A stretch of DNA of 64,000 nt from an uncultured Verrucomicrobia subdivision 3 bacterium. GTDB taxonomy: Bacteria; Verrucomicrobiota; Verrucomicrobiia; Limisphaerales; UBA11358. The first letter of the stretch is position 1; every line of letters starts with the position of its first letter. This document shows positions 2,149 to 63,871 of this stretch, in pieces. Made by a program: the position numbers and the translations under genes. The stretch covers positions 20,168 through 84,167 of the forward strand of contig CAIOIC010000111.1 in assembly GCA_903858275.1 (NCBI GenBank), in the 5' to 3' direction. The notes under the pieces were generated by a model. That model did no database searches and had not been told where the DNA came from. It was given only the letters and a program-made list of their open reading frames with translations.

Positions 2149-3507
2149 ATGAAAAGAATTCTACTCCTAATTGTATTGGCCTGTGTCGCCACGCTGCCGT
2201 TTGGCAGTTTTGCCGGTGAAGCCACCGAAACCAAGGAACAGCGCGATGCCCGCATGGCGTGGTGGCGCGAGGCTAAATTCGGCCTGTTCATCCATTGGGG
2301 AGTATATTCGGTGCCTGCCGGATTTTATCAGGATAAACCGGTCAAGGGCATTGGCGAGTGGATCATGAACCGCGGCAAGATTCCCATGGCCGAATACCAA
2401 CAGTTTGCCAAGCAGTTCAACCCGGCGAAATATAATGCCGATGACTGGGTCAAAGCTGCCAAGGACGCGGGCATGAAATACATCATCATCACCTCGAAGC
2501 ATCATGACGGCTTCGCGATGTTTGATACCAAGGCCAACCCATGGAACATCGTGCAAGCGTCGCCCTATGGCAAAGACCCGCTAAAAGACCTTGCTGCTGC
2601 CTGTCGTAAATATGGTGTCAAACTCGGTTTTTATTATTCGCAGGCGCAGGATTGGAACAACGGTGGTTCCGCCAGCGGTGGCAAATGGGACAAGGCGCAG
2701 GAATATGACATGGATGAATACATTGACAAGGTGGCGGTGCCGCAGGTGAAGGAAATCTGCTCCAATTACGGTGAATTTCCCGCCGTCATCTGGTGGGATA
2801 CGCCGACTGGCATGAATACCAACCGCGCACAGAAACTTTATGATGCCGTCCACGCGCTCCGGCCGAATATCATCCTGAACAACCGTCTTGGTGGCGGTTT
2901 CAAGAGCGATACCGAGACGCCCGAGCAGCATATCCCCCAGAAGGGCTATCCGGGCCGCGATTGGGAAGCCTGCATGACCCTGAACGACACGTGGGGGTTC
3001 AAGCGCGATGACAACAATTGGAAGAGCACCGAGACGCTGCTTTTCAATCTCGTTGACATCGTGAGCAAGGGAGGCAACTACCTGCTCAACGTCGGCCCGA
3101 CGAGCGAAGGAATCATTCCGCAACCCAGTCTCGACCGGCTGGCGGAAATCGGCAAATGGATGAAGGTCAACAGCGAGGCGATCTACGGTGCCGGCACCTC
3201 CTGTTTCGGAGTGGAATATGGACAGGCGGTCAAGGAAAAGGACGGCTATGGTAAGGAGCGCGAAACCTCGGGCAGCCGCGAATGGCGTTGCACAACCAAG
3301 TCGGGGAAAATTTATCTTCACATCTTCAAGTGGCCGAAGGACGGAAAATTTGAAGTGCCCGCACTATCAAGCAAAGTGCAAAAGGCTTACCTGCTGGCTG
3401 GCCAAAAAAAGCTGAAGGTGAAGCAAACGGAAACCGGAATTTCCATCGCTTTGCCGGAAAAAGCACCGGACGCCATCGCCTCGGTGGTCTGCCTGGAAAT
3501 TAAATAA
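2149..3507 (+). CDS. alpha-L-fucosidase (GH29), secreted
   Basis: Signal peptide, then WWREAKFGLFIHWGVYSVPAG ... IIITSKHHDGFAMFDT, which are typical GH29 motifs. Confidence 0.9.
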   Translation: MKRILLLIVLACVATLPFGSFAGEATETKEQRDARMAWWREAKFGLFIHWGVYSVPAGFYQDKPVKGIGEWIMNRGKIPMAEYQQFAKQFNPAKYNADDWVKAAKDAGMKYIIITSKHHDGFAMFDTKANPWNIVQASPYGKDPLKDLAAACRKYGVKLGFYYSQAQDWNNGGSASGGKWDKAQEYDMDEYIDKVAVPQVKEICSNYGEFPAVIWWDTPTGMNTNRAQKLYDAVHALRPNIILNNRLGGGFKSDTETPEQHIPQKGYPGRDWEACMTLNDTWGFKRDDNNWKSTETLLFNLVDIVSKGGNYLLNVGPTSEGIIPQPSLDRLAEIGKWMKVNSEAIYGAGTSCFGVEYGQAVKEKDGYGKERETSGSREWRCTTKSGKIYLHIFKWPKDGKFEVPALSSKVQKAYLLAGQKKLKVKQTETGISIALPEKAPDAIASVVCLEIK

Positions 3508-3525
3508 AATTCCCAAACCCATCAT

Positions 3526-3557
3526 GGCCGCCAGCGTGATTGCTGGCGGCCTTTTTT
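3526..3557 (+). terminator. rho-independent terminator after the fucosidase gene
   Basis: Perfect 10-bp stem GGCCGCCAGC (3526-3535) / GCTGGCGGCC (3542-3551), 6-nt loop, then TTTTTT. Confidence 0.85.
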
Positions 3558-3604
3558 ATTTGCCGGCAAGGTCCGGCCAGAGCAGCCCTGTATGGCCGTT
3601 CGGC

Positions 3605-3625
3605 GTTGAGTGTTGAGTGTTGAAT
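3605..3625. repeat. tandem heptamer repeat GTTGAGT GTTGAGT GTTGAAT
   Basis: Read directly from the sequence; 7-nt period, 3 units. Confidence 0.9.
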
Positions 3626-3707
3626 GTTTCCCGAATTTCCGCTTTTGAATTTGCTTGCCCGTGCGGCAAGCACTTTGCGCCTTGGCGTCTTTGCGTGAGG
3701 GGTCGCG

Positions 3708-3728
3708 CCATCTTCCATCCTCGCCTTC
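3708..3728. repeat. tandem heptamer repeat CCATCTT CCATCCT CGCCTTC
   Basis: Read directly from the sequence. The same CCATCTT unit recurs at 4550-4563. Confidence 0.8.
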
Positions 3729-4231
3729 CACTATCCTATTACCTTCCACATCTGCTCTCGGATTTTATGATAATTTCACTGGATATATCTGTATCTATGT
3801 ATTATAATACACATTGTTCAGTGGGCTCGGCCTGTCGCCGGACGCTGGTGTCTCTGACGCTGCCTTGCCGGTGGCGGGTGCGGTTTTCCGTGTGGCGTGC
3901 GTGGCCGTTCTTTGACATCTGGATTTTGTCCCGCCGCCCGTTCTGTAATCTCTGCAACAGGTGTAGAGTCGAGCCTGTGGCTTGACCGCAACGTGGCCAA
4001 CCGGTGAATTCCGGCCACCGGCCGGACGCTGCACCGTGCGGCGCGCGGCATTTGCAGAGATTTCGTTCTGGGTTGCCCGGGTGGAGTTTGTCCCCTTCGC
4101 CCGGCAACCTGGAAAATTTCAAAATTTAATTATTGGCGCGGTTTGGTGTGCTCGGATTACTTTCACCTGCCGTTGGCTGGAGCATTTGGCCCTGATTCCT
4201 TTTGAAACTTGATCCCCTCAAAAATAAAAAT

Positions 4232-4313
4232 GGTAAAGAAATGGTAAAGTTTTAGGTGCTCTATCAACCACTTACAACAAATCACCCATGGGGTGGTAAA
4301 GAAAACGGTAAAG
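4232..4313 (+). repeat. DR-core module A
   Basis: GGTAAAG-AAAT-GGTAAAG (4232-4249), linker TTTTAGG, 26-nt core TGCTCTATCAACCACTTACAACAAAT (4257-4282). A second pair GGTAAAG-AAAAC-GGTAAAG follows at 4295-4313. Confidence 0.9.
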
Positions 4314-4321
4314 TAATTATC

Positions 4322-4347
4322 GGTGGGGCGAGCGTCCCCGCGAGCTG
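4322..4347. repeat. 26-nt dispersed motif GGTGGGGCGAGCGTCCCCGCGAGCTG
   Basis: 25/26 identical to 26359-26384 (inside argJ). The first 20 nt match 34902-34921 (inside the U32 gene) except for that same C/T position. Contains a small GCGAG/CTCGC-type inverted repeat. Confidence 0.9.
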
Positions 4348-4364
4348 TCATGGCTCGTGTGGCG

Positions 4365-4409
4365 GGCACCTTCTCCCCCTCGGGGGAGAAGGCCGGGATG
4401 AGGGGGCGC
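4365..4409. repeat. 45-nt palindromic (REP-like) element
   Basis: GGCACCTTCTCCCCCTCGGGGGAGAAGGCCGGGATGAGGGGGCGC. The 10-bp stem is CTTCTCCCCC/GGGGGAGAAG. It is 43/45 identical to 63779-63823. Confidence 0.9.
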
Positions 4410-4459
4410 TCCGGCAATCCGAGGTTAATGTGGTGAGGTCGGGTCACAAAAATTTAACC

Positions 4460-4529
4460 GGTAAAGAAAAGGTTAAGTTTTTGATGCTCTATCAACCACT
4501 TGCAACAATTGGTCCTCTGCCTGGTAAAG
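4460..4529 (+). repeat. DR-core module B
   Basis: GGTAAAG-AAAA-GGTTAAG (4460-4477), linker TTTTTGA, core TGCTCTATCAACCACTTGCAACAATT (4485-4510), trailing GGTAAAG (4523-4529). Confidence 0.9.
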
Positions 4530-4549
4530 AAACCGTGGCTCACCAGCCT

Positions 4550-4563
4550 CCATCTTCCATCTT
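4550..4563. repeat. tandem heptamer CCATCTT x2
   Basis: Read directly from the sequence. Confidence 0.8.
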
Positions 4564-4682
4564 CGGCCCCCGCCGACCCCTCGTGCGCCAGAAAAGAGGC
4601 GACAAATGCGCCAAAAAACGACAAAAAGTGCCACAGGGCATCCAGACTCCGGAAAGCGACCCCTGAAAATATGCCTCTCCAC

Positions 4683-4733
4683 GGTCCAGAAACGGTCCAG
4701 TTTTGGATGCTCTATCAATCACTTACGACAAAT
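4683..4733 (+). repeat. DR-core module C
   Basis: GGTCCAG-AAAC-GGTCCAG (4683-4700), linker TTTTGGA, core TGCTCTATCAATCACTTACGACAAAT (4708-4733). Confidence 0.9.
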
Positions 4734-4895
4734 GACCACTCATCCAGCCTTCCCAAGGAGAGAGAATTGGGGCGAGGGAGTTCTGTGGCCCATGTGGCCC
4801 GCATTGTTCGTCCGGTCCGGGCAACCGATGGTTTCACTTCCTCATGGCCAACGGCAGCTTGCCGTCCGTTGCGGGCTGAGCCGGTCAGATGTGGA

Positions 4896-5423
4896 TTACT
4901 TTTTCCCGCTCACCGAATTGGTGGCGGCGAAATCAATCGAGGCCGAGTTGATGCAGTAGCGCAGGCCGGTCGGCGTGGGGCCGTCGTCAAAAACGTGGCC
5001 AAGGTGGCTGCCGCAGTTGGCGCACAAGACTTCCGTGCGTTTCATGCCGTGGCTGTTGTCCTCGCGGGCGATGACTTTCTTCTGCGCGGCGATCTCGGAG
5101 AAGCTCGGCCAGCCGCAGTGCGAATCAAACTTATCGTCCGACTTGAACAAAATCTCGCCGCACGCCGCACAGCGGTAAATGCCCGGCTCCTTGGTGTTCC
5201 AGTATTTACCGGTGAACGGTCGTTCGGTGCCCGCCTCGCGCAGGACGTGGTATTGTTCCGGCGTCAGGAGTTTGCGCCATTCAGCCTCGGTGCGTTGCAG
5301 GGGAAATTTCATAGTGGTGGAATTGGTGGGAGTGGCTGCAATCTGATTCGTCGGCGCGGCACTGCAGCCGACAGTGAGCAGCAGCGCGCTGGCGATGATG
5401 GAAATGAAACCGGTTTTTTTCAT
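4896..5423 (-). CDS. msrB: peptide-methionine (R)-S-oxide reductase MsrB with an export/lipoprotein-type signal
   Basis: Two CxxC pairs (RCAACGEILF, LCANCGSHLGHVFDDGP), GWPSF, and a catalytic RYCINS motif. The N-terminus is MKKTGFISIIASALLLTVGCSAAP. Confidence 0.9.
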   Translation of the reverse strand: MKKTGFISIIASALLLTVGCSAAPTNQIAATPTNSTTMKFPLQRTEAEWRKLLTPEQYHVLREAGTERPFTGKYWNTKEPGIYRCAACGEILFKSDDKFDSHCGWPSFSEIAAQKKVIAREDNSHGMKRTEVLCANCGSHLGHVFDDGPTPTGLRYCINSASIDFAATNSVSGKK

Positions 5424-5592: not shown

Positions 5593-8500
5593 ATGTTTCC
5601 CCGCCGCGATTTTCTAAAACTGTCGTCCGCCGCTGCCCTGGGCATGGTGTTTTCACGGATGCCCGCGATGGCCGGGCCGTTCACCCGCGAAGACTTTGAC
5701 CACTTGGTTCCCGCCGACAAAAAACTTTCGCCCGAATGGGTGAAATCCCTGTTTGCGCGCGGCACGCCGGAAGTGCTGCGCGGGGGCGAACTCAAATACG
5801 TTGGCATGCCCGTCGGTGGCATTGGCGCAGGCCAGCTTTATCTCGGCGGTGACGGGCGGCTCTGGCATTGGGACATTTTTAATAGCAGCAGTAAAACGGG
5901 CTCGGAGCATTATGCCAAACCATCGGTTCCCAACTCACCATTGGCGCAAAAATTCTCGCTCAAAATTGGTGGCACCACCCACACGCTGGATCGCGACGGG
6001 TTTTCGGACATCACGTTTCGCGGCGAATATCCGATTGGCATGGTGGATTACACGGATGCCAGCATTCCGCTGGCGGTGAAACTGGAAGCGTTTTCACCGT
6101 TCATCCCGTTGAATACCGATGACTCAAGTTTGCCCGCCACGATTCTCCAGTTCACGTTGCGCAATACTTCGGCTGCGCCCGTCGAAGCGGTGCTTTACGG
6201 CGAACTGGAGAATGGCGTCTGTTTGAATCACCGCTGGCAGGACGGGATATTGCGCAATCGCAGCTTGCGCGAGCCGGGCTTGACCACGCTGTTTTGCTCG
6301 GCGGAGAAGTCCGCGTCACCGCGGCCCCACCGGGCGGATGTGATGTTTGAAGATTGGAACCAGGAAACCTACGCCGGCTGGAAAGTGGAAGGCACGGCGT
6401 TCGGCAGCGGGCCGATCAAGAAAGCCGAAATTCCGTCCTATCAAGGCGACGTCGGCGGGGACACGGCGCGGGTGGTGAATTCGCACGCCTCCGCGCCGGG
6501 TGGTTTCGTCGGGGGAAGAGATGGCGCCACGGGCAAACTTGTCAGCCGCGAGTTCGTCATTGAGCGCAATTTCATCTCGTTCTGGATCGGCGGCGGCAAG
6601 GCGAAGAAAGGTTCGCGCTTCGGCCTGACGCTGCTGGTGGAAGGCCGGCCGGTGCAGACGGCGGCGGGGCAGGATAAGAACCAGATGGCGCTGCAAATAT
6701 TTGACGTGCGCAATCACGCCGGCAAGCCGGCGCGCCTCGAGATTCTTGATGATGCCACGGGCAGCTGGGGCAACGTTGGCGTGGGAAAAATTGTCTTCAC
6801 CGACCTGCCGGGCAAGGCCGAGGCGCTCGGGGAACTGCCGGATTTCGGCACGATGAGCCTGTCATTGCTCGGGGAACCGGCGGACGAAACCAGCGCGGAC
6901 GCCACCGCGCCGTTTGAGGAAAAGTTATCCGGCTCACTCGGGCGCAAAATCAAACTCGCCCCCGGCGCCTCTGCGGTGGTGACTTTCGTCGTGGCCTGGA
7001 ATTTTCCAAACCTTTCGCTCGGCGGGGTGCTGGCGAAGGCGGGGCGCCATTATGCCGCCAGGTTTTCCTCGGCGCACGCCGTGGCGCAATACGTCGCCGC
7101 GCAATTTGACCGGCTGGCGCGCGAAACCCGATTGTGGCGCGACACCTGGTATGACTCGACGCTGCCCTACTGGTTTCTCGACCGCACCATGCTGAACACG
7201 TCCATCCTCGCCTCTTCGACGTGCTTCCGTTTGGCCAACGGACGCTTCTACGGCTGGGAAGGCGTCGGCTGCTGCGCGGGCACCTGCGGCCATGTTTATC
7301 ACTATGCGCACGCCGCCGGCCGGCTGTTTCCGGAACTGGAACGGGACACGCGCGAGCGGGTGGATTTCGGCCTGGCTCTGCAGCCGGATGGCGCCATTTA
7401 TTTTCGCGGCGAGTTCAATAAAATTCCCGCCGTGGACGGACAGGCCGGGACGGTGCTGCGCGCTCTCCGCGAACATCAGATGTCGGCCGACGGGCAATTT
7501 CTCAAGCGCAACTGGCCGAAGATCAAGCTCGCCACGGAGTGGCTCATCGCGAAGGACGCCGATGGCGACGGCATCATTGAAGGCAACCAGCACAACACGC
7601 TGGACACGGATTGGTTCGGGCCGGTGGCGTGGCTGAGCGGACTTTATCTCGCGGCGCTCCTCGGCGCGGCGCGGATGGCGGATGAAGCCGGTGATGCCGG
7701 GTTTGCTTCGAAATGCCGAAAGATTTTTGAAGTCGGACGGAAGAAGCTCGTCGCAGATTTGTTTGATGGCGAATATTTCATCAACCAGGCTGATCCGAAA
7801 CACCTCGACGCCATCAATTCGGGAACGGGCTGCGAGATTGATCAGGTGTTTGGCCAGAGCTGGGCGTTCCAAGTCGGCCTGCCCCGCGTGTTACCCCAGA
7901 AGGAGACCGTGGCCGCGCTAAAATCTCTCTGGCGCTACAACTTTTCACCGGATGCCGGCGATTATCGCAACAAAATGGGTTCGGGCCGCTGGTATGCCAT
8001 GCCGGGCGAGGCGGGCTTGCTGATGTGTTCGTTCCCGCGTCGGGACTGGGACTTCGCGAAGGCGAGCGGTAAGGACAAGCCTGGTTGGGCGGCAGGCTAT
8101 TTCAACGAGTGCATGAACGGCTTCGAGTATCAAGCGGCCGGCCACATGATCTGGGAGGGCATGGTGCTGGAAGGGCTCGCGGTGACCCGCGCGGTGCACG
8201 ATCGCTATCACGCATCGCGCCGCAATTCCTGGAACGAAGTCGAATGCGGCGACCATTACGCGCGCAGCATGGCGAGCTACGGCGTCTATCTCGCGGCGTG
8301 CGGCTTTGAATACGACGGGCCCAAGGCGCACATCGGCTTCGCGCCGAAACTGACGCCGGAGAATTTCAAATGCGCCTTCACCAGCGCAGAAGCGTGGGGT
8401 AGCTACTCGCAAAAGTCGGAAAGCGGAAAGCGAAAAGCAGAAATCGCCGTGCGCTGGGGGAAGTTGAGATTAAAAACCATTGCTTTGGAATCAGCGGGAG

Positions 8501-22393: not shown

Positions 22394-22431
22394 GCTTTAG
22401 ATGTGAATTGCGGGAATTTTCACCAATCGAA

Positions 22432-22488
22432 TTCGTGTCAATTCGTGAAATTCGTGTCTAAATTTTCGTGTGGTTCGTGTGGTTCGTG
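22432..22488 (+). repeat. array of six TTCGTG units (9-14 nt spacing) just upstream of argC
   Basis: TTCGTG at 22432, 22442, 22451, 22465, 22474 and 22483. The array ends 16 nt before the argC ATG. Confidence 0.9.
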
Positions 22489-22504
22489 GTTAAATTTTTG
22501 AAAG

Positions 22505-25531: not shown

Positions 25532-26881
25532 ATGAAAACGCAGTTCAAAGAAATTAGCGGATCCATCGTTGCGCCCACCGGCTTTCTCGCCAGCGGCGTG
25601 TTTTGCGACATCAAAAAACTCGGCACCGGCAAAGGCTCGAACAAGGGCGAGAAGCGCGACCTCGCGCTTATCGTTTCCGAAACGCCCGCGACGGTGGCTG
25701 GAATGTTCACGACAAATCAGGTTTGCGCTGCCCCGGTAAAGGTCTGCGCCGAACGCGTGAAGAAAGGCACGGCACAAGTCGTCGTCGTTAATTCCGGTAA
25801 CGCGAACGCCTGCACCGGCAAACAGGGCATGGCCGACGCGCGCGACATGGTTTCGTTTACGGAGCAGGCACTGGGATTTTCGGCGGGACGTGCGCTGGTG
25901 GGATCCACCGGTCGCATCGGCGTGATAATGCCGATGGATAATGTCCGCGCTGGCATTATCGAAGCTGTGTTGGAATTGGGCTACACCACCGCTCATGCTG
26001 ACCATGCAGTTGTAGCAATCATGACGAGCGACACCAAGCCCAAGCAAATCGCGTTGGAATTCAAGCTCGGCGGCAGGACGGTTCGCATCGGCGGCATCTG
26101 TAAAGGTGCGGGAATGATCCAGCCCGGCATGAGCGGGACCGGAGCGAGGCCGGCGGCGTTGCCTGGTGGCCATCCGCAAGGATTGCACGCGACGATGCTC
26201 GGATTCATCACCACCGACGCGGCGGTTGAACGGAAAGTTTTACAGGTAGCGTTGCAGGAAGCCGTGGCGCACAGTTTTAATCGCATCACCGTGGATGGCG
26301 ACATGAGCACAAACGACACGGTGCTGGTGCTGGCCAACGGTTTGGCCGGCAATAAACCGGTGGGGCGAGCGTCCTCGCGAGCTGATTTGCATATATTTCA
26401 GGCCGCGCTGAATCACGTCTGCCTTGAACTGGCGAAGAAGATTGTGCGCGACGGCGAAGGCGTTCATCGCGTTGTGACCGTGCGTGTGAGCGGCGCGAAG
26501 ACGGTTCAGGATGCCGATGCCGCCGCGCGCGCGGTGGCTAACAGCGCGCTGGTGAAAACAAGCTGGCATGGCGGAGACCCAAACTGGGGCCGCATCATTG
26601 ACGCGATTGGATATTCCGCCGCGACGGTGGTGGAGGAGAAAATTGACATCGGCTATTCTGCGCCTAGCTCAAAGAAAATTCTTTGGAGTCTGAAACGCGG
26701 CCAGCCGACGAAGGCGACGTTTAAGCAATTATGCGCTGCTGTTGCCCCGAAGGAATTTGAACTGCACATCCAACTGAATCTCGGCAAGTCGAGCGCGGTG
26801 ATGTATGCCGCCGATTTGACCGAGGAATATGTGGACTTCAACAAGGGTGACGTGACGGATGCCAGCTCATTGGGCGGTTAG
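25532..26881 (+). CDS. argJ: bifunctional ornithine acetyltransferase / N-acetylglutamate synthase
   Basis: ICKGAGMIQP...ATMLGFITTDA (autoprocessing Thr), DGDMSTNDT, VRDGEG, SWHGGDPNWGRI. I prefer the start at MKTQFKE. Confidence 0.93.
   Translation: MKTQFKEISGSIVAPTGFLASGVFCDIKKLGTGKGSNKGEKRDLALIVSETPATVAGMFTTNQVCAAPVKVCAERVKKGTAQVVVVNSGNANACTGKQGMADARDMVSFTEQALGFSAGRALVGSTGRIGVIMPMDNVRAGIIEAVLELGYTTAHADHAVVAIMTSDTKPKQIALEFKLGGRTVRIGGICKGAGMIQPGMSGTGARPAALPGGHPQGLHATMLGFITTDAAVERKVLQVALQEAVAHSFNRITVDGDMSTNDTVLVLANGLAGNKPVGRASSRADLHIFQAALNHVCLELAKKIVRDGEGVHRVVTVRVSGAKTVQDADAAARAVANSALVKTSWHGGDPNWGRIIDAIGYSAATVVEEKIDIGYSAPSSKKILWSLKRGQPTKATFKQLCAAVAPKEFELHIQLNLGKSSAVMYAADLTEEYVDFNKGDVTDASSLGG
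26359..26384. repeat. copy of the 26-nt GGTGGGGCGAGCGTCCTCGCGAGCTG motif inside argJ
   Basis: Encodes PVGRASSRADL in the argJ frame. See 4322-4347 and 34902-34921. Confidence 0.9.
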
Positions 26882-31509: not shown

Positions 31510-31595
31510 GGTAGGTTATCCAAGTGGCTAAAGGGTGCAGACTGTAAATCTGTCGGCTTACGCCTTCGATGGTTCGAATCCATCACCTACCACCA
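31510..31595 (+). tRNA. tRNA-Tyr (anticodon GTA), encoded CCA
   Basis: Hand-folded. Acceptor GGTAGGT/ACCTACC, anticodon loop CTGTAAA, long variable arm, T-arm GATGG-TTCGAAT-CCATC, then A-CCA. Closely parallels the E. coli tRNA-Tyr layout. Confidence 0.93.
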
Positions 31596-32828: not shown

Positions 32829-35462
32829 TCATTTACCCATCTGGCCGCGCGTGACCCCGAGCTGGTTGAAGAGTTTTAATTCGTGCCAGAGCTCCGTGCC
32901 GGAAATTTCACCACGCAACAATTGCCGGTATTTTGCAATCGTCCGCTCCACTTCGTCCGGCGATTCGTTCAGAAATTCCACGCGGAAATTGCGGACGCCG
33001 AGCACGAGCAGCCGTTCCACAAATTCCGCGCCCGTCTGCGCTTGTGAATTAAAAACGGTGTTGCGGCAGCCGGCATCGGCCTTGAGCGGATGCTCCGCGC
33101 CCACGCGGTCGCGCAGCCGCACGTCATGCACGTCGCACGGCCGGCCGCAGTCATGATAATCCCTGCCTTGGGAGAGAAACGCGCAGAACACGCAATGCTC
33201 CATGTGAAACATCGGCATGTGCTGATGAATCGTGACCTCAAACCATGCCGGCGGCGCAGCAGAGAGCAATGCCTCCAGTTGAAGCACATTCAGATCGTAG
33301 CTGGCCGTGACGCGTTCGAGACCGAAATGTTTTTTAAAATAGTCCGCCGTGATGCGGTTGGCCACGTTCAGTGAAAAATCCCCGATGCGCCGCGTATCCG
33401 CGAAATATTTCAGGTGATCGTAATTGCGGACGAGAAAGCCGTCCGCGTCGGCGGAACGGACCTGCTTGAGAATCCAGTCATCACCCGTCTTGAAGACGCG
33501 CGGCGGCGCGACGAAGATGCCAGGCAGCGAGGATAGAGTCTGGAGGCTGGAGGCTGGAGACGAACAGCCGCGAGCGGTGTGAAAGGCGGTCACGGCTTCA
33601 CGATATTTCTTCGGGTCTTCAAACTCGCAATAGACCGTGGTCACGCCGCATTTCAACGCCGCGTCAAGCTGCGCGAGATTGCGGACGAGGACGATCAATT
33701 GCGGATATTCGATTAAGGATATCGGTTGGGCGGGCAAAACGGTTTCCCCAACTTCCAACTTCCGACTTCCAGCTGCTGCCAAAGTCCACTGTTTCGGCAG
33801 CGCGCGGCGTTGTTCCAATTCCGCCACCGCCTCGCGGCGCAGGCGATTCAATTCACTCACCGGCACCAGCACATCGCCGACCAGGAAATTTTTTAATTCG
33901 CCCAGCATGAACGGCGTGCCGCCGAGCCGGCCAAGCTGGTCACGCAGTTTTTCTTCCGTGAGCGGCACTTTCTCCGCCTGGGCCAGCGGCATGGTGGAAT
34001 CAGCCTTCGCCATGTTGCCCGCCGCATCGCGGAGTATCAGCGTCAGCGGCTCGCCCACGCCTCCATAAACTTCAATGGTGACAGGGCGTTGAAAGCGGAT
34101 TTTGTCGCCGGCAAAACTTTGTCGCAGGCGCTTGTCGAGCTCCGGATCATTCGTCTTCCATAATTTGTCGCCGACATGGACGCGCAGAAAATTGATCTGG
34201 CCGTTGCCGAAGCGCAACTCCGTCAACGCCATGCCGGGAAGCTTGAACCGGGGGTTTTCCATCTCGTAAATCCGGCCCCCTTCTTCCTTTTCATCCGGCC
34301 GGCCCGCATCAAAAACAATGCCATCGCCGGGTTTCAGCGGCGCGGAGAGATTCACGATGACACCGTCGCGGACAATTTTTTTGACTTCGCCGAGATAGAC
34401 GCCGCGTTTTTTGCCGAACCGGGCGTGAACCAGTTTTTGATTGTCCGTGCCGCCGAACCAGCCGGTAAAAAGCCCGCGCGAGAAGGACATTTCCAGCTCG
34501 TATTGACGATTTACGATTTCGGATTTACGAGTGGATGGGTCGGCCGCGTGTAAATCGTCATTCGTAAATCTTAAATCATCAAGCGCCTTGCGATAGACGC
34601 GCGTGATGCTGGCGACGTATTCGGCCGACTTGAGCCGGCCTTCGATTTTGAGCGATGCCACGCCGGCGCGGACGAGGTTCGGCAGAACTTCCAGGCCGGA
34701 CAAATCCTGCGGGCTTAGCAAATATCGTTTGTCGCCAAGCGGAACTAGCTGGCCGTCGGAAATCAAATCATACGGCATCCGGCAGGCCTGCGCGCATTCG
34801 CCGCGATTGGCGGAACGACCGCCCAGTGATTCGCTCGTCAAACACTGGCCGGAATACGCGACGCACAGCGCGCCGTGAACAAACACTTCCAATGGCATGG
34901 CGGTGGGGCGAGCGTCCTCGCAAACCGCTTCGTCGGCAGAAAGTTCGGCTTGCGGGGACGCTTGCCTCACCGCATTTATTATTTCGATCTCGGCAATGGA
35001 ACATTCGCGCGCCAGAACGACGAGGTTACAGCCGAGTTCGCGGGCAAAATCAATTCCCGCCGCGCTGGTGACGGTCATTTGGGTCGAGGCGTGGATGGGA
35101 AAATCCGGTGAGAGTCCGCGGATCAATTTGCAGATGCCGACGTCTTGAACAATGGCCGCATCCACGCCGGCGGCGATGATGGCGCGCAGGTAGTTTTCCG
35201 CATCGGCGATTTCGTTCTGGAAAACCAGTGTGTTGAAGGTGATGTAGCCTTTGACGCCGCGCCGGTGCAGAAATTCCATCAGCTTCGGCAGATCCGCCTC
35301 GGTGAAATTGTTTGCCCGCATTCGCGCGTTGAATTTGTCGAGGCCAAAATAAATCGCATCCGCGCCATTTTCCACTGCCGCCTTGACGCAATCCCAGTCG
35401 CCGGCTGGGGCGAGCAACTCCGGCAATTGCAGGTTCGGTTTAATGGTGTCGCCTAAGTTCAT
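32829..35462 (-). CDS. peptidase U32 family protein (long fused form)
   Basis: PELLAPAGDWDCVKAAVENGADAIYFGLDKFNARMRANNF, VHGALCVAYSGQCLTS and EGRLKSAEYVA, with a second U32-like half near the C-terminus. Confidence 0.88.
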   Translation of the reverse strand: MNLGDTIKPNLQLPELLAPAGDWDCVKAAVENGADAIYFGLDKFNARMRANNFTEADLPKLMEFLHRRGVKGYITFNTLVFQNEIADAENYLRAIIAAGVDAAIVQDVGICKLIRGLSPDFPIHASTQMTVTSAAGIDFARELGCNLVVLARECSIAEIEIINAVRQASPQAELSADEAVCEDARPTAMPLEVFVHGALCVAYSGQCLTSESLGGRSANRGECAQACRMPYDLISDGQLVPLGDKRYLLSPQDLSGLEVLPNLVRAGVASLKIEGRLKSAEYVASITRVYRKALDDLRFTNDDLHAADPSTRKSEIVNRQYELEMSFSRGLFTGWFGGTDNQKLVHARFGKKRGVYLGEVKKIVRDGVIVNLSAPLKPGDGIVFDAGRPDEKEEGGRIYEMENPRFKLPGMALTELRFGNGQINFLRVHVGDKLWKTNDPELDKRLRQSFAGDKIRFQRPVTIEVYGGVGEPLTLILRDAAGNMAKADSTMPLAQAEKVPLTEEKLRDQLGRLGGTPFMLGELKNFLVGDVLVPVSELNRLRREAVAELEQRRALPKQWTLAAAGSRKLEVGETVLPAQPISLIEYPQLIVLVRNLAQLDAALKCGVTTVYCEFEDPKKYREAVTAFHTARGCSSPASSLQTLSSLPGIFVAPPRVFKTGDDWILKQVRSADADGFLVRNYDHLKYFADTRRIGDFSLNVANRITADYFKKHFGLERVTASYDLNVLQLEALLSAAPPAWFEVTIHQHMPMFHMEHCVFCAFLSQGRDYHDCGRPCDVHDVRLRDRVGAEHPLKADAGCRNTVFNSQAQTGAEFVERLLVLGVRNFRVEFLNESPDEVERTIAKYRQLLRGEISGTELWHELKLFNQLGVTRGQMGK
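33539..33559. repeat. tandem heptamer TCTGGAG GCTGGAG GCTGGAG inside the U32 gene
   Basis: Read directly from the sequence; 3 x 7 = 21 nt. Confidence 0.85.
33748..33775. repeat. tandem heptamer CCAACTT CCAACTT CCGACTT CCAGCTG inside the U32 gene
   Basis: Read directly from the sequence. Encodes ...GSRKLEVGE... on the minus strand. Confidence 0.85.
34508..34577. repeat. heptad-armed inverted-repeat element inside the U32 gene
   Basis: Left arm GATTTAC GATTTCG GATTTAC (34508-34528), 21-nt GC-rich centre, right arm GTAAATC GTCATTC GTAAATC TTAAATC (34550-34577). Confidence 0.85.
34902..34921. repeat. 20-nt GGTGGGGCGAGCGTCCTCGC motif inside the U32 gene
   Basis: Identical to the first 20 nt of the argJ copy. 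Encodes EDARPT on the minus strand. Confidence 0.9.
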
Positions 35463-63621: not shown

Positions 63622-63778
63622 AAAAAGCGAACGCGAAGCCTAGCTTGCCGGAAGAAACATGGCAAACGCAAAAGCAGACTGCTTTTGATTATAATCCTAA
63701 TCCTGCTGGGAAAACCGATTAATACCATTCCCCCATGACAATTGGTGAATTAGTGGGGAACCCCCTCAACCGCCCTTC

Positions 63779-63823
63779 GGGCACCTTCTCCCCCACGGGG
63801 GAGAAGGCCGGGGTGAGGGGGCG
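63779..63823. repeat. second copy of the 45-nt palindromic (REP-like) element
   Basis: GGCACCTTCTCCCCCACGGGGGAGAAGGCCGGGGTGAGGGGGCGC. It is 43/45 identical to 4365-4409. An outer CCCCCTCA/TGAGGGGG pair extends the palindrome to about 63759-63819. Confidence 0.9.
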
Positions 63824-63871
63824 CACGGATGATTCGACCGCTGCTTATCGGTCATTAATATACAGTTATGA

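Follow-up and report, generated by a model that had tools for sequence, protein, structure and literature searches.

The stretch of DNA considered here (the window) comprises 64,000 nt of a contig from an uncultured Verrucomicrobia subdivision 3 bacterium (CAIOIC010000111.1), and this report concerns three short repeat modules that lie in it in a 1,388-nt gene-free gap between two convergent genes. The gap is bounded by an alpha-L-fucosidase gene (2149-3507, + strand), which is followed by a terminator at 3526-3551, and by msrB (4896-5423, - strand), and it stands out from the other intergenic gaps of the window, which are mostly shorter than 350 nt. What is new here is a family of dispersed, polar intergenic repeats of ~100 bp to which the modules belong and which has a home copy beside a conserved helix-turn-helix (HTH) gene; literature searches found no earlier description of these repeats.

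Three modules between the fucosidase and msrB genes

A repeat search of the 64-kb window returned the modules as one family of 55 nt with three copies, A at 4232-4286, B at 4460-4514 and C at 4683-4737, the latter two being 84% and 82% identical to copy A and successive copies starting 228 and 223 nt apart. No sequence similar to them was found elsewhere in the window. Their 26-nt core pattern occurs, with up to three mismatches, only at 4257, 4485 and 4708, and was matched in none of 100 shuffled sequences, while GGTNNAG-N4-GGTNNAG is restricted to 4232, 4460 and 4683 against a chance expectation of 0.05 matches. Six of the 10 GGTAAAG heptamers in the 64 kb fall within 4232-4529. The original prediction, made by a model from the letters of this DNA, had described three cores with this spacing and an identity of 24/26, each preceded by a T-rich linker (TTTTAGG, TTTTTGA or TTTTGGA) and by 7-4-7 direct repeats with an 11-bp period, together with a 12-nt gap between the second half-site and a TATCAA hexamer and extra GGTAAAG units 12 nt past cores A and B. 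The repeat and pattern searches recover the cores and their spacing, the direct repeats are found in all three copies, the extra units are present at 4295, 4307 and 4523, and the core identity, the linkers and the gap are as described.

All parts of the modules are read on the + strand. Module A begins with the left arm GGTAAAG-AAAT-GGTAAAG (4232-4249), found by the repeat and pattern searches, and continues with the linker TTTTAGG and the core (4250-4282), in which TATCAACCACTTA at 4262-4274 matches the IHF consensus discussed below; its right arm, GGTAAAG-AAAAC-GGTAAAG (4295-4313), begins 38 nt after the core start. Upstream lies a degenerate inverted 7-mer, CTTGATC (4209-4215), at the place where the paralogues L011, L012, L015 and L020 (L numbers designate the loci retrieved outside the window) carry CTTTACC. 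Module B has the left arm GGTAAAG-AAAA-GGTTAAG (4460-4477), recovered by the same searches, the linker TTTTTGA and the core (4478-4510, with the consensus match TATCAACCACTTG at 4490-4502) and a right arm reduced to one GGTAAAG (4523-4529). The left arm of module C is of a co-varied class, GGTCCAG-AAAC-GGTCCAG (4683-4700), which is seen eight times among the unique copies, and is followed by the linker TTTTGGA and the core (4701-4733, consensus match TATCAATCACTTA at 4713-4725) without a right arm. In all window copies the base preceding the core is A or G, giving an RTG start. The stop codon that had been placed in copy A of the shared reading frame is absent: copies A and B share an open frame of 136 codons (4256-4666), which is without coding character, and neither this open reading frame (ORF) nor the other local ORFs have a Pfam match.

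In a relative whose fucosidase is 90% identical (L041), only 84 nt separate the stop codons of the fucosidase and msrB genes, and the contig of a second relative (P0003) has the compact order fucosidase, msrB, GH116, phosphoglucomutase. Aligned to the empty site in L041, the window holds a repeat mosaic inserted at about 3591-4878 (~1.29 kb, + strand), and by this alignment the three modules are part of an insertion made in this lineage between the convergent genes. Contigs with an identical fucosidase gene end within this region, one at window position 3824 and two at 4084-4087. Another such contig, L037, tracks the window as far as 4247, a position in the second half-site of copy A, and then diverges. 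Beyond the break (L037 2880-3640 compared with window 4228-4260) it runs on in unrelated, A+T-richer DNA with a different gene, indexed on longer contigs of the same layout as a giant 2,554-aa immunoglobulin-like protein. The break would reflect a rearrangement at the repeat within the population or else chimeric assembly.

The repeat family and the genes linked to it

A scan of one genome per species with the query TGCTCTATCAANCACTTNCNAC returned 35 loci, 33 of which come from five verrucomicrobial metagenome-assembled genomes (MAGs), namely MFD09286.bin.2.119 with 17, MJ-time_bin-1719 with 13 and three others with one each. The two remaining contigs are L005, assigned to the Bifidobacteriaceae, and L034, assigned to the Bacteroidales. 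Both hold complete modules, L034 with the same cargo as lies between A and B in the window; by sequence they plainly belong to this family and are most likely mis-binned verrucomicrobial contigs. At up to four mismatches the scan loci and the window together hold 46 copies, and with the metagenome loci added the number of unique copies becomes 79-81; a single verrucomicrobial MAG has at least 23 and another has 15. All copies are intergenic, none lying inside a gene, and the neighbouring genes are unrelated (smpB, gatC, dapA, serA, kdsA, lpxC, tuf, uvrA, the citramalate synthase gene cimA and a gene for an RRM protein, among others). Where copies occur in tandem they are 180-490 nt apart, always in direct orientation and always with the GGTAAAG class first and another class second, an order that the window modules also obey. 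Judged from this distribution, the modules are copies of a lineage-specific, dispersed intergenic repeat of ~100 bp of Verrucomicrobia subdivision 3 (Pedosphaera-like). Two scans of viral contigs gave no real match, only a single chance match in an AT-rich coding region, and a phage origin was rejected on these grounds.

The extent of the unit can be read from MFD09286, where the dispersed copies and a gene-linked copy (L025) share exactly positions -51 to +49 relative to the core start, with 92-94% identity. From 5' to 3' the unit consists of an inverted 7-mer (CTTTACC, in general CTNNACC), an A/T-rich spacer of ~17-22 nt, two direct GGTNNAG 7-mers 11 bp apart, TTTT with three purine-rich bases, the core, a variable G+C-rich spacer of ~11 nt and the right arm. 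The TTTT stands 8 nt before TATCAA (-7 to -4) in 67 of 79 copies, and the right-arm GGTAAAG starts at +38 in 60 of 79, often with a second 7-mer after it; the first 7-mers of the left and right arms are 63 bp apart, or six helical turns.

The change of both half-sites in copy C, from which the original prediction had deduced a tandem protein-binding site, recurs throughout the family. Among 80 unique copies the half-site pair is GGTAAAG/GGTAAAG in 37, GGTCAAG/GGTCAAG in 15 and GGTCCAG/GGTCCAG in eight, so that 60 of 80 pairs are identical and fall into three main classes; the remainder comprises rarer GACCGG-type pairs and a handful of mixed ones. The upstream inverted 7-mer co-varies with the direct 7-mers (CTTTACC, CTTGACC, CTGTACC), with 79.6% of the cells complementary to the first direct 7-mer compared with at most 45% in slid controls, and in eight sequences one position of the pair has switched from UA to GC. 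In 29 of 79 copies the 50 nt upstream contain an inverted copy that is perfect (7/7), whereas ~0.2 would be expected by chance. Since the second direct repeat also changes, a hairpin is an insufficient explanation, while a protein reading the 7-mer would account for all three 7-mer sites. Half-site identity through at least three classes together with the co-varying inverted copy thus supports the behaviour of a tandem protein-binding site. The right arm remains GGTAAAG regardless of the class of the left arm.

Positions 6-18 of the core read TATCAA-CCAC-TTA/G, an exact match to WATCAANNNNTTR, which has been used as the IHF consensus in PMC8942017 and 23 other papers. In the whole window, on both strands, this consensus has exactly three matches, and these are the three cores. 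As copies selected by the core would bias the estimate of its conservation, metagenomes were scanned by the arm alone (TGGTAAAGAAAAGGTAAAG), which gave 123 arms, 20 of them with a core and 18 of these unique. In these 18 unbiased cores G2, A7, T8, C9, A10, A14, T16 and T17 are invariant, while positions 5, 12, 13 and 15 and all from 18 on vary, so that conservation is highest over ATCAA and TT and falls off within the N4 block. Positions 12, 13, 15 and 18 are variable as the IHF consensus would predict; position 14, an N in that consensus, is an invariant A, and TGCT (positions 1-4, outside the consensus) is also fixed. The spacing of the TTTT to TATCAA equals that of the A6 tract in lambda H', AAAAAA-N8-TATCAA-N4-TTGCAAC, a sequence that was verified at 100% identity in lambdoid attP regions. 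On these features the core reads as an IHF-type site. A DnaA box was considered and rejected, with only 6/9 bases agreeing.

Gene orientation was taken at all loci from simple gene calling on codon usage: the module runs in the direction of its downstream gene in 46 of 59 regions and in that of its upstream gene in 36 of 45. Where the genes on both sides share one direction, 25 modules point along and two against them, and six regions, the window included, are convergent and without a gene that the module could serve. The element is polar with respect to transcription; polarity with replication instead is possible but less likely. This polarity fits a promoter, an operator or a transcribed element, and is the main evidence retained for the promoter model that had been proposed for the modules.

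The gene to which the repeat is linked was traced in the arm-selected metagenome loci and in L025 of MFD09286. It encodes a 136-aa HTH protein and ends ~10-60 nt from the inverted 7-mer in every locus that includes its 3' end. After its stop codon come C/GTTTACC, a spacer and two or three GGTAAAG, with or without core and right arm, and then, wherever downstream sequence sufficed, a gene for a 257-aa protein in the same direction. The GGTAAAG array always lies between the two genes, while the genes flanking this cassette differ between genomes; in loci of the L076 type the third GGTAAAG overlaps the ATG of the 257-aa gene. The 136-aa and 257-aa genes occupy 6744-7154 and 5698-6432 in L025 (- strand), 1339-1749 and 215-1057 in L047 (- strand), and 6001-6411 and 6613-7386 in L167. 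A more distant homologue of the HTH gene in L099, 39% identical, is also followed by arm and core. An ORF of the same locus (985-1201, MKKSLLEKKQIPECAVELAG...) starts downstream of the divergent HTH gene and its arm and core, and its N-terminus looks by eye like a transposase HTH region.

The 136-aa protein has 842 homologues, with 74-100% identity among the 120 matches listed, none of which carries a Pfam domain. Its predicted structure is a three-helix HTH bundle followed by a long helix (coiled-coil), and its weak matches in Pfam, NCBIfam and PHROGs are to HTH_23, to IS3 OrfA (E = 0.03, for a family with a curated cut-off of 160 bits) and to generic transcriptional-regulator families; a fold search returned, at E >= 0.9 throughout, only generic HTH neighbours, LysR DNA-binding domains and small terminases among them. 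The 257-aa partner evolves faster (~50-57% identity) and has an all-helical model; its N-terminus is rich in Arg, its linker is rich in Pro and Ala, and RCDAWSRWARQ is conserved at its C-terminus. Nothing significant was found for it in Pfam, NCBIfam, PHROGs, PDB sequences or, with AlphaFold2 and Foldseek, PDB folds. Its segment RERENRAEQRRW was considered as a lambda N arginine-rich motif and dismissed, the model placing it inside a long bundle helix. One 610-kb contig holds two 257-aa paralogues (P0298 and P0332). This adjacency of gene and array, the sole pointer to a cognate protein, would make the 136-aa HTH protein the best candidate for a reader of GGTAAAG.

Two IS200-like Y1 transposase genes (PF01797) lie in L166 (803-1744 and 3433-4374), a few kb from the HTH cassette, and are possibly of the REP-associated (RAYT) type. 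GTAG-tagged REP hairpins stand directly after the stop codon of the HTH gene, and REP-like GTAGGGACGGCGCGCTGCGCCGTCC occurs in L025, L047 and L166. GTAG-tagged REP families have reportedly been treated in one paper, which is said to link them to RAYT transposases.

Readings of the module

The explanation that we favour, which we regard as quite possible though somewhat short of probable, is that the module is a portable, polar nucleoprotein site, a dispersed repeat with an IHF-type core and phased 7-mers. An HU/IHF-type DNA-bending protein would sharply bend the core and a sequence-specific protein would bind the phased 7-mers cooperatively on both sides of the bend, while selection for identical sites together with 11-bp tandem slippage would keep the half-sites alike. 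The likeliest binder of GGTAAAG would be the 136-aa protein with its HTH and coiled-coil, because its gene always precedes the GGTAAAG array. The assembled complex would be polar and would probably modulate transcription into the downstream gene, as an operator or an upstream architectural element. The home copy would be the one between the HTH gene and the 257-aa partner gene, and the unit would have spread into long intergenic mosaics, in which case the window copies would be passengers of the 1.29-kb insertion between convergent genes and probably regulate nothing. Possible roles of the repeats are to regulate the downstream gene, to serve the spread of the element itself, or both.

The closest kinds of known element are RIP/BIME-1 and Correia elements and, in architecture, the arms of lambda attP and cosB. 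The E. coli RIP/RIB element (BIME-1) has the order REP, IHF site, REP, and like the present family consists of dispersed intergenic units of ~100 bp in tens of copies, often between transcription units, with a central IHF-consensus match and short repeated flanks in inverted relation. Its flanks are 35-bp REP palindromes, however, rather than phased direct 7-mers in co-varying classes, and the verrucomicrobial unit is strongly polar, forms tandem direct arrays, belongs to another phylum and has one copy tied to a pair of protein genes. Correia elements (NEMIS, Neisseria) carry 26-bp terminal inverted repeats, duplicate a TA target and insert in either orientation, whereas the unit described here has inverted bounds of 7-11 bp, no target duplication that could be found and an orientation ratio of 25 to 2. 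They resemble it as miniature dispersed repeats (~100-150 bp) with an internal IHF site near gene starts that can affect neighbouring transcription and differ in presence or absence between relatives, and they have been cited as promoter-bearing mobile elements (PMC3575422). In the lambda attP P' arm (H', then P'1-P'3) and in cosB (R3 - I1 - R2 - R1) an IHF site likewise adjoins phased tandem protein sites and the bend brings the bound proteins together, the module, TTTT-N8-TATCAA-N4-TTGCAAC, differing from the H' sequence given above only in its T4 for A6; the present family differs in having no crossover core, no consistently linked integrase or terminase, tens of chromosomal copies and none in the viral contigs scanned. 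Direct repeats phased at ~11 bp around a core and cooperatively bound by a small DNA-binding protein encoded nearby are also known from parC of plasmid R1 and from iteron origins such as that of pSC101, where an IHF site lies between the repeat clusters. The phased repeat clusters on both sides of a central core are shared with these, but they are single-copy sites of plasmid partition or replication as opposed to tens of chromosomal copies beside housekeeping genes.

Several observations weigh against a portable nucleoprotein site of this kind, and it must be taken with corresponding caution. The IHF consensus used here was defined in Proteobacteria, and IHF does not explain the near-invariant TGCT (positions 1-4), A14 or the purine-TG before the core. 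No HU/IHF gene was found by tblastn in the ~1 Mb of fetched DNA, a small sample, with E. coli HupA, IhfA and IhfB as queries. Neither the 136-aa nor the 257-aa model has a significant fold match, and the HTH link concerns the GGTAAAG class only, no paralogue having been found for the GGTCAAG or GGTCCAG classes. Only 20 of the 123 GGTAAAG arms sampled from metagenomes carry the core, which makes arms and core separable modules. Half-site identity could be maintained by slippage alone, since tandem slippage over 11 bp could homogenise the direct copies, so that selection on the half-sites is something we infer. As to the portability of the unit, no clear target duplication was seen at the junctions of the window insertion or, by eye, at unit flanks, no transposase was found, and unit boundaries vary between copies.

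The original prediction had taken the modules for activator-dependent promoters, in which, on the pattern of a Pho or CpxR box, 7-bp direct repeats stand in for the -35 element and TATCAA acts as the -10; a transcript with a common 5' end would then be a small RNA or the leader of a downstream gene, and the half-site classes would correspond to paralogous activators. This is now unlikely, though it retains more than a trace of plausibility. Its geometry fits, with an 11-bp repeat period and the second repeat ending 12 nt ahead of TATCAA; half-site identity is kept in several classes, and the bias of orientation towards the downstream gene (46 of 59 regions; 25 versus two) is what an outward-firing promoter would give. 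At the HTH/257-aa locus the module is always upstream of the 257-aa gene and faces it, in L157 at only ~10 nt from the ATG, and the order of tandem modules, GGTAAAG class and then another class, resembles that of tandem promoters. The resemblance to the Pho and CpxR boxes of the OmpR/PhoB family extends to the 7-bp direct repeats, the 4-bp A/T spacer, the 11-bp period and a proximal repeat 12 nt from a TA-rich hexamer, and the GTAAA-N6-GTAAA of the module comes near to GTAAA-N5-GTAAA, the CpxR box among the direct repeats of this family. Against this, sigma-70 -10 hexamers have a conserved -11 A and -7 T, whereas the hexamer is without the -7 T in essentially every copy of the module (17 of the 18 unbiased cores have A at position 11), and a consensus promoter scan calls no promoter at the three window cores. 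The most conserved bases fall where the spacer or discriminator would be, and TATCAA reads instead as the first half of an exact IHF consensus, TATCAA-NNNN-TTR. The next co-oriented gene follows at a median of 425 nt (range 43-1643 nt); the downstream genes are functionally unrelated and hence form no regulon, and the copies in the window and in five other regions face the end of a convergent gene, so that the window modules, being inside an insertion between convergent genes, have no downstream gene to drive. There is neither a terminator nor a conserved small-RNA fold, no response regulator is linked to the modules, and the protein that is linked, an HTH and coiled-coil protein, has no receiver domain; moreover, the second arm lies downstream of the core and the whole is a mobile repeat, in both of which respects it is unlike a Pho or CpxR box. 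The modules are thus members of a dispersed family rather than locus-specific promoters, and the Pho-box reading founders on the -10 hexamer, the missing regulon and the missing response regulator. Other promoter types were rejected as well: on both strands inspection by eye found no sigma-70 -35 beside the TATCAA that lacks its -7 T; a minus-strand TTGTAA/TTGATA-17-N6 promoter has an absent or unconserved -10; the GG-to-GC spacing is wrong for sigma-54; TAAAGTTT fits a sigma-28 -35, but spacing and -10 fail and other half-site classes lack it; an extracytoplasmic-function type GGAAC-N16-CGTC has the wrong spacing; and the Bacteroidetes TTTG/TAnnTTTG promoter does not fit.

That the module is a transposon end or an att-like site appears improbable. 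The 7-mers would here be subterminal transposase or recombinase sites and the IHF-type site would fold the end, as in the lambda attP arms, the ends of IS10 and Tn1000 and Correia elements, so that conservation would serve the spread of the element and not host regulation. Presence/absence polymorphism and assembly breaks at the repeats, among them the variant contig L037 that breaks exactly inside the second half-site, argue for it, as do near-identical copies beside unrelated genes, the inverted 7-mers that bound the unit (CTTTACC...GGTAAAG), the arrangement of arms and IHF site as in the lambda P' arm and the weak likeness of the linked HTH protein to an IS3 transposase N-terminus (E = 0.03). 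In L027 a tyrosine integrase gene (PF00589, 1296-2348, - strand) lies 172 nt from a module at 2520 whose left arm is truncated, and this repeat or the DNA beside it may have been the insertion point of an integrative element. The repeats share with miniature inverted-repeat transposable elements (MITEs) that they are multi-copy, short, non-coding, intergenic and polymorphic for presence. The inverted pair that bounds the unit measures only 7-11 bp (CTNNACC...GGTNNAG); 29 of 79 copies have it without a mismatch, and the boundaries of the unit vary from copy to copy. No autonomous parent element, with a transposase and ends that match, is linked to the modules, nor does any transposase or recombinase accompany them consistently, and DDE, HUH and recombinase signatures are absent from the 257-aa partner. 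Tandem copies are always direct and never inverted, no clear target-site duplication was found, viral contigs hold no real match, and neither the strong polarity with transcription nor the high conservation of the HTH gene (74-100% in the 120 matches listed) would be expected of a simple transposon end and a selfish transposase, respectively. The original prediction was to fall if the core turned out to be the terminus of a known insertion sequence or MITE; the core does belong to a dispersed repeat element, which in spirit counts against that prediction, but to no known insertion sequence or MITE.

Two further readings were considered. In one, to which we give very little credence, the core is the start of a translated upstream ORF, (M/V)LYQPLTTI-xxx-PGKEKVK, of 17-19 codons, whose A-rich arms load ribosomes and which tunes the downstream gene. 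ATG or GTG stands directly before the core in 76 of 79 copies, the variable core position 5 is the third base of a Leu codon, spacers of 11 to 14 nt keep the frame, with a stop past the right arm in many copies, in L157 the end of the ORF and the ATG of the downstream 257-aa gene are 4 nt apart, and Shine-Dalgarno sequences are seemingly absent in the lineage. The TAT, CAA and CTT codons almost never vary synonymously, however, and the fifth codon has two variable first bases and an invariant third, the opposite of coding constraint; ORF length spans 14 to 270 codons, the peptide has no family match and left-arm classes such as GGTCCAG are not A-rich. Still less probable, to the point of being scarcely credible, is a module that acts as RNA in long leaders, either as a nut- or boxA-like antitermination signal or as a protein-binding RNA. 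The polarity with transcription would fit, TGCTCT equals the first six bases of the enterobacterial rrn boxA (TGCTCTTTAACAA), and the inverted and first direct 7-mers could pair as a 7-bp stem with a compensatory change. Yet boxA has a conserved C and U where the core has a variable position 5 and, in all copies, an A at position 7, RNAalifold gives -0.71 kcal/mol with no covarying pairs over 27 diverse copies, and the hairpin leaves the co-variation of the second direct 7-mer unexplained. Rfam yields no match even at E = 10: within 3450-5000, with E up to 10, nothing reaches half a family's gathering score, and at gathering score the window has no match except a tRNA at 31510. Since there is also no + strand terminator after any of the three copies, a small-RNA family with a common 5' end, which the original prediction had raised, has neither an Rfam match nor a conserved fold nor a terminator to recommend it. 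A comparison with the Nus-factor boxA core GCUCUUUA was rejected too, with only TGCTCT in common and failures at core positions 5 and 7, and so was a resemblance to a tRNA or D-arm on the minus strand, where ARAGORN gives nothing. A boxA-like TGTTCTTTGACAA was observed in a single instance, at about 531-600 of L093, directly before CTTTACC and three GGTAAAG.

If the portable nucleoprotein site is real, it would be a natural case of a protein-binding cassette spreading through a bacterial chromosome with its home copy still in place. It would make approachable the questions of how transcription-factor or architectural sites are disseminated in a little-studied, environmentally abundant phylum, how specificity diversifies from GGTAAAG to GGTCAAG to GGTCCAG, and why kilobase-long intergenic repeat mosaics exist; if the modules are only selfish repeats, they would be an ordinary new repeat family. 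A bolder extension, which we consider improbable, is that the HTH protein, which may descend from an IS3-like OrfA, forms an undescribed regulatory or architectural system together with its 257-aa partner. Its operator, phased GGTNNAG around an IHF-type bend, would on this doubtful extension be copied as a portable ~100-bp cassette. Equally speculative is that dozens of housekeeping genes (tuf, smpB, lpxC, serA) would thereby be wired together, with new classes arising by co-variation of the three 7-mers. If true, this would amount to the rewiring of a bacterial network by a mobile binding-site cassette. On the practical side, the repeats break or mis-join metagenome assemblies and turn up on wrongly binned contigs, so that recognising them aids MAG curation.

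Other repeats of the mosaic

The 1.29-kb insertion also holds a separate repeat, element X (3704-4148, + strand, in two parts, 3704-3945 and 4064-4148), which precedes the class-A modules and has seven copies in MAG MJ-time_bin-1719. Its window copy is interrupted at 3945-4064 by a 120-nt insert common to L035. Element X has a sigma-70-like TGGATA-17-TATAAT at 3780-3808, followed by ~300 nt that are rich in G+C and contain a long conserved stem, and may represent a non-coding RNA gene present in several copies.

The cargo between modules A and B (4321-4422, + strand) consists of two dispersed repeats found by the repeat search. The repeat at 4321-4347 is CGGTGGGGCGAGCGTCCCCGCGAGCTG and recurs at 26358-26384 and 34901-34927 of the window; that at 4363-4422 is a strong hairpin, CACCTTCTCCCCC-TCG-GGGGGAGAAGG, and recurs at 63778-63837. 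The same arrangement of arm, cargo and module is found in L034. Module C is the end of a class-C unit of ~150 nt (4591 to 4737), whose upstream part (4591-4682, + strand) holds A-tract word arrays (GCGACAAAT, CGACAAAAA, GTGCCAC) as well as CATCCAG and CTCCGG words and AAAGCGACCCCTGAAAATATGCCTCTCCAC, and is 85-88% identical to sequences in L001, L015, L026 and L028.

Such word arrays, in which words of 6-8 nt are repeated two to five times with a period of 9-11 nt and A- or T-tract spacers, are abundant in the intergenic DNA of the lineage; they occur at 22420-22500, 3605-3628 and 4591-4640 of the window and widely in L001-L035, with TTCGTG, TTAGCG, GTGACAAAAA, CGCGACAAAA, CGGTAAAAAT, GGTGCGGTTT and GTTGAGT as examples. 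The GGTNNAG arms seem to be one case among these arrays.

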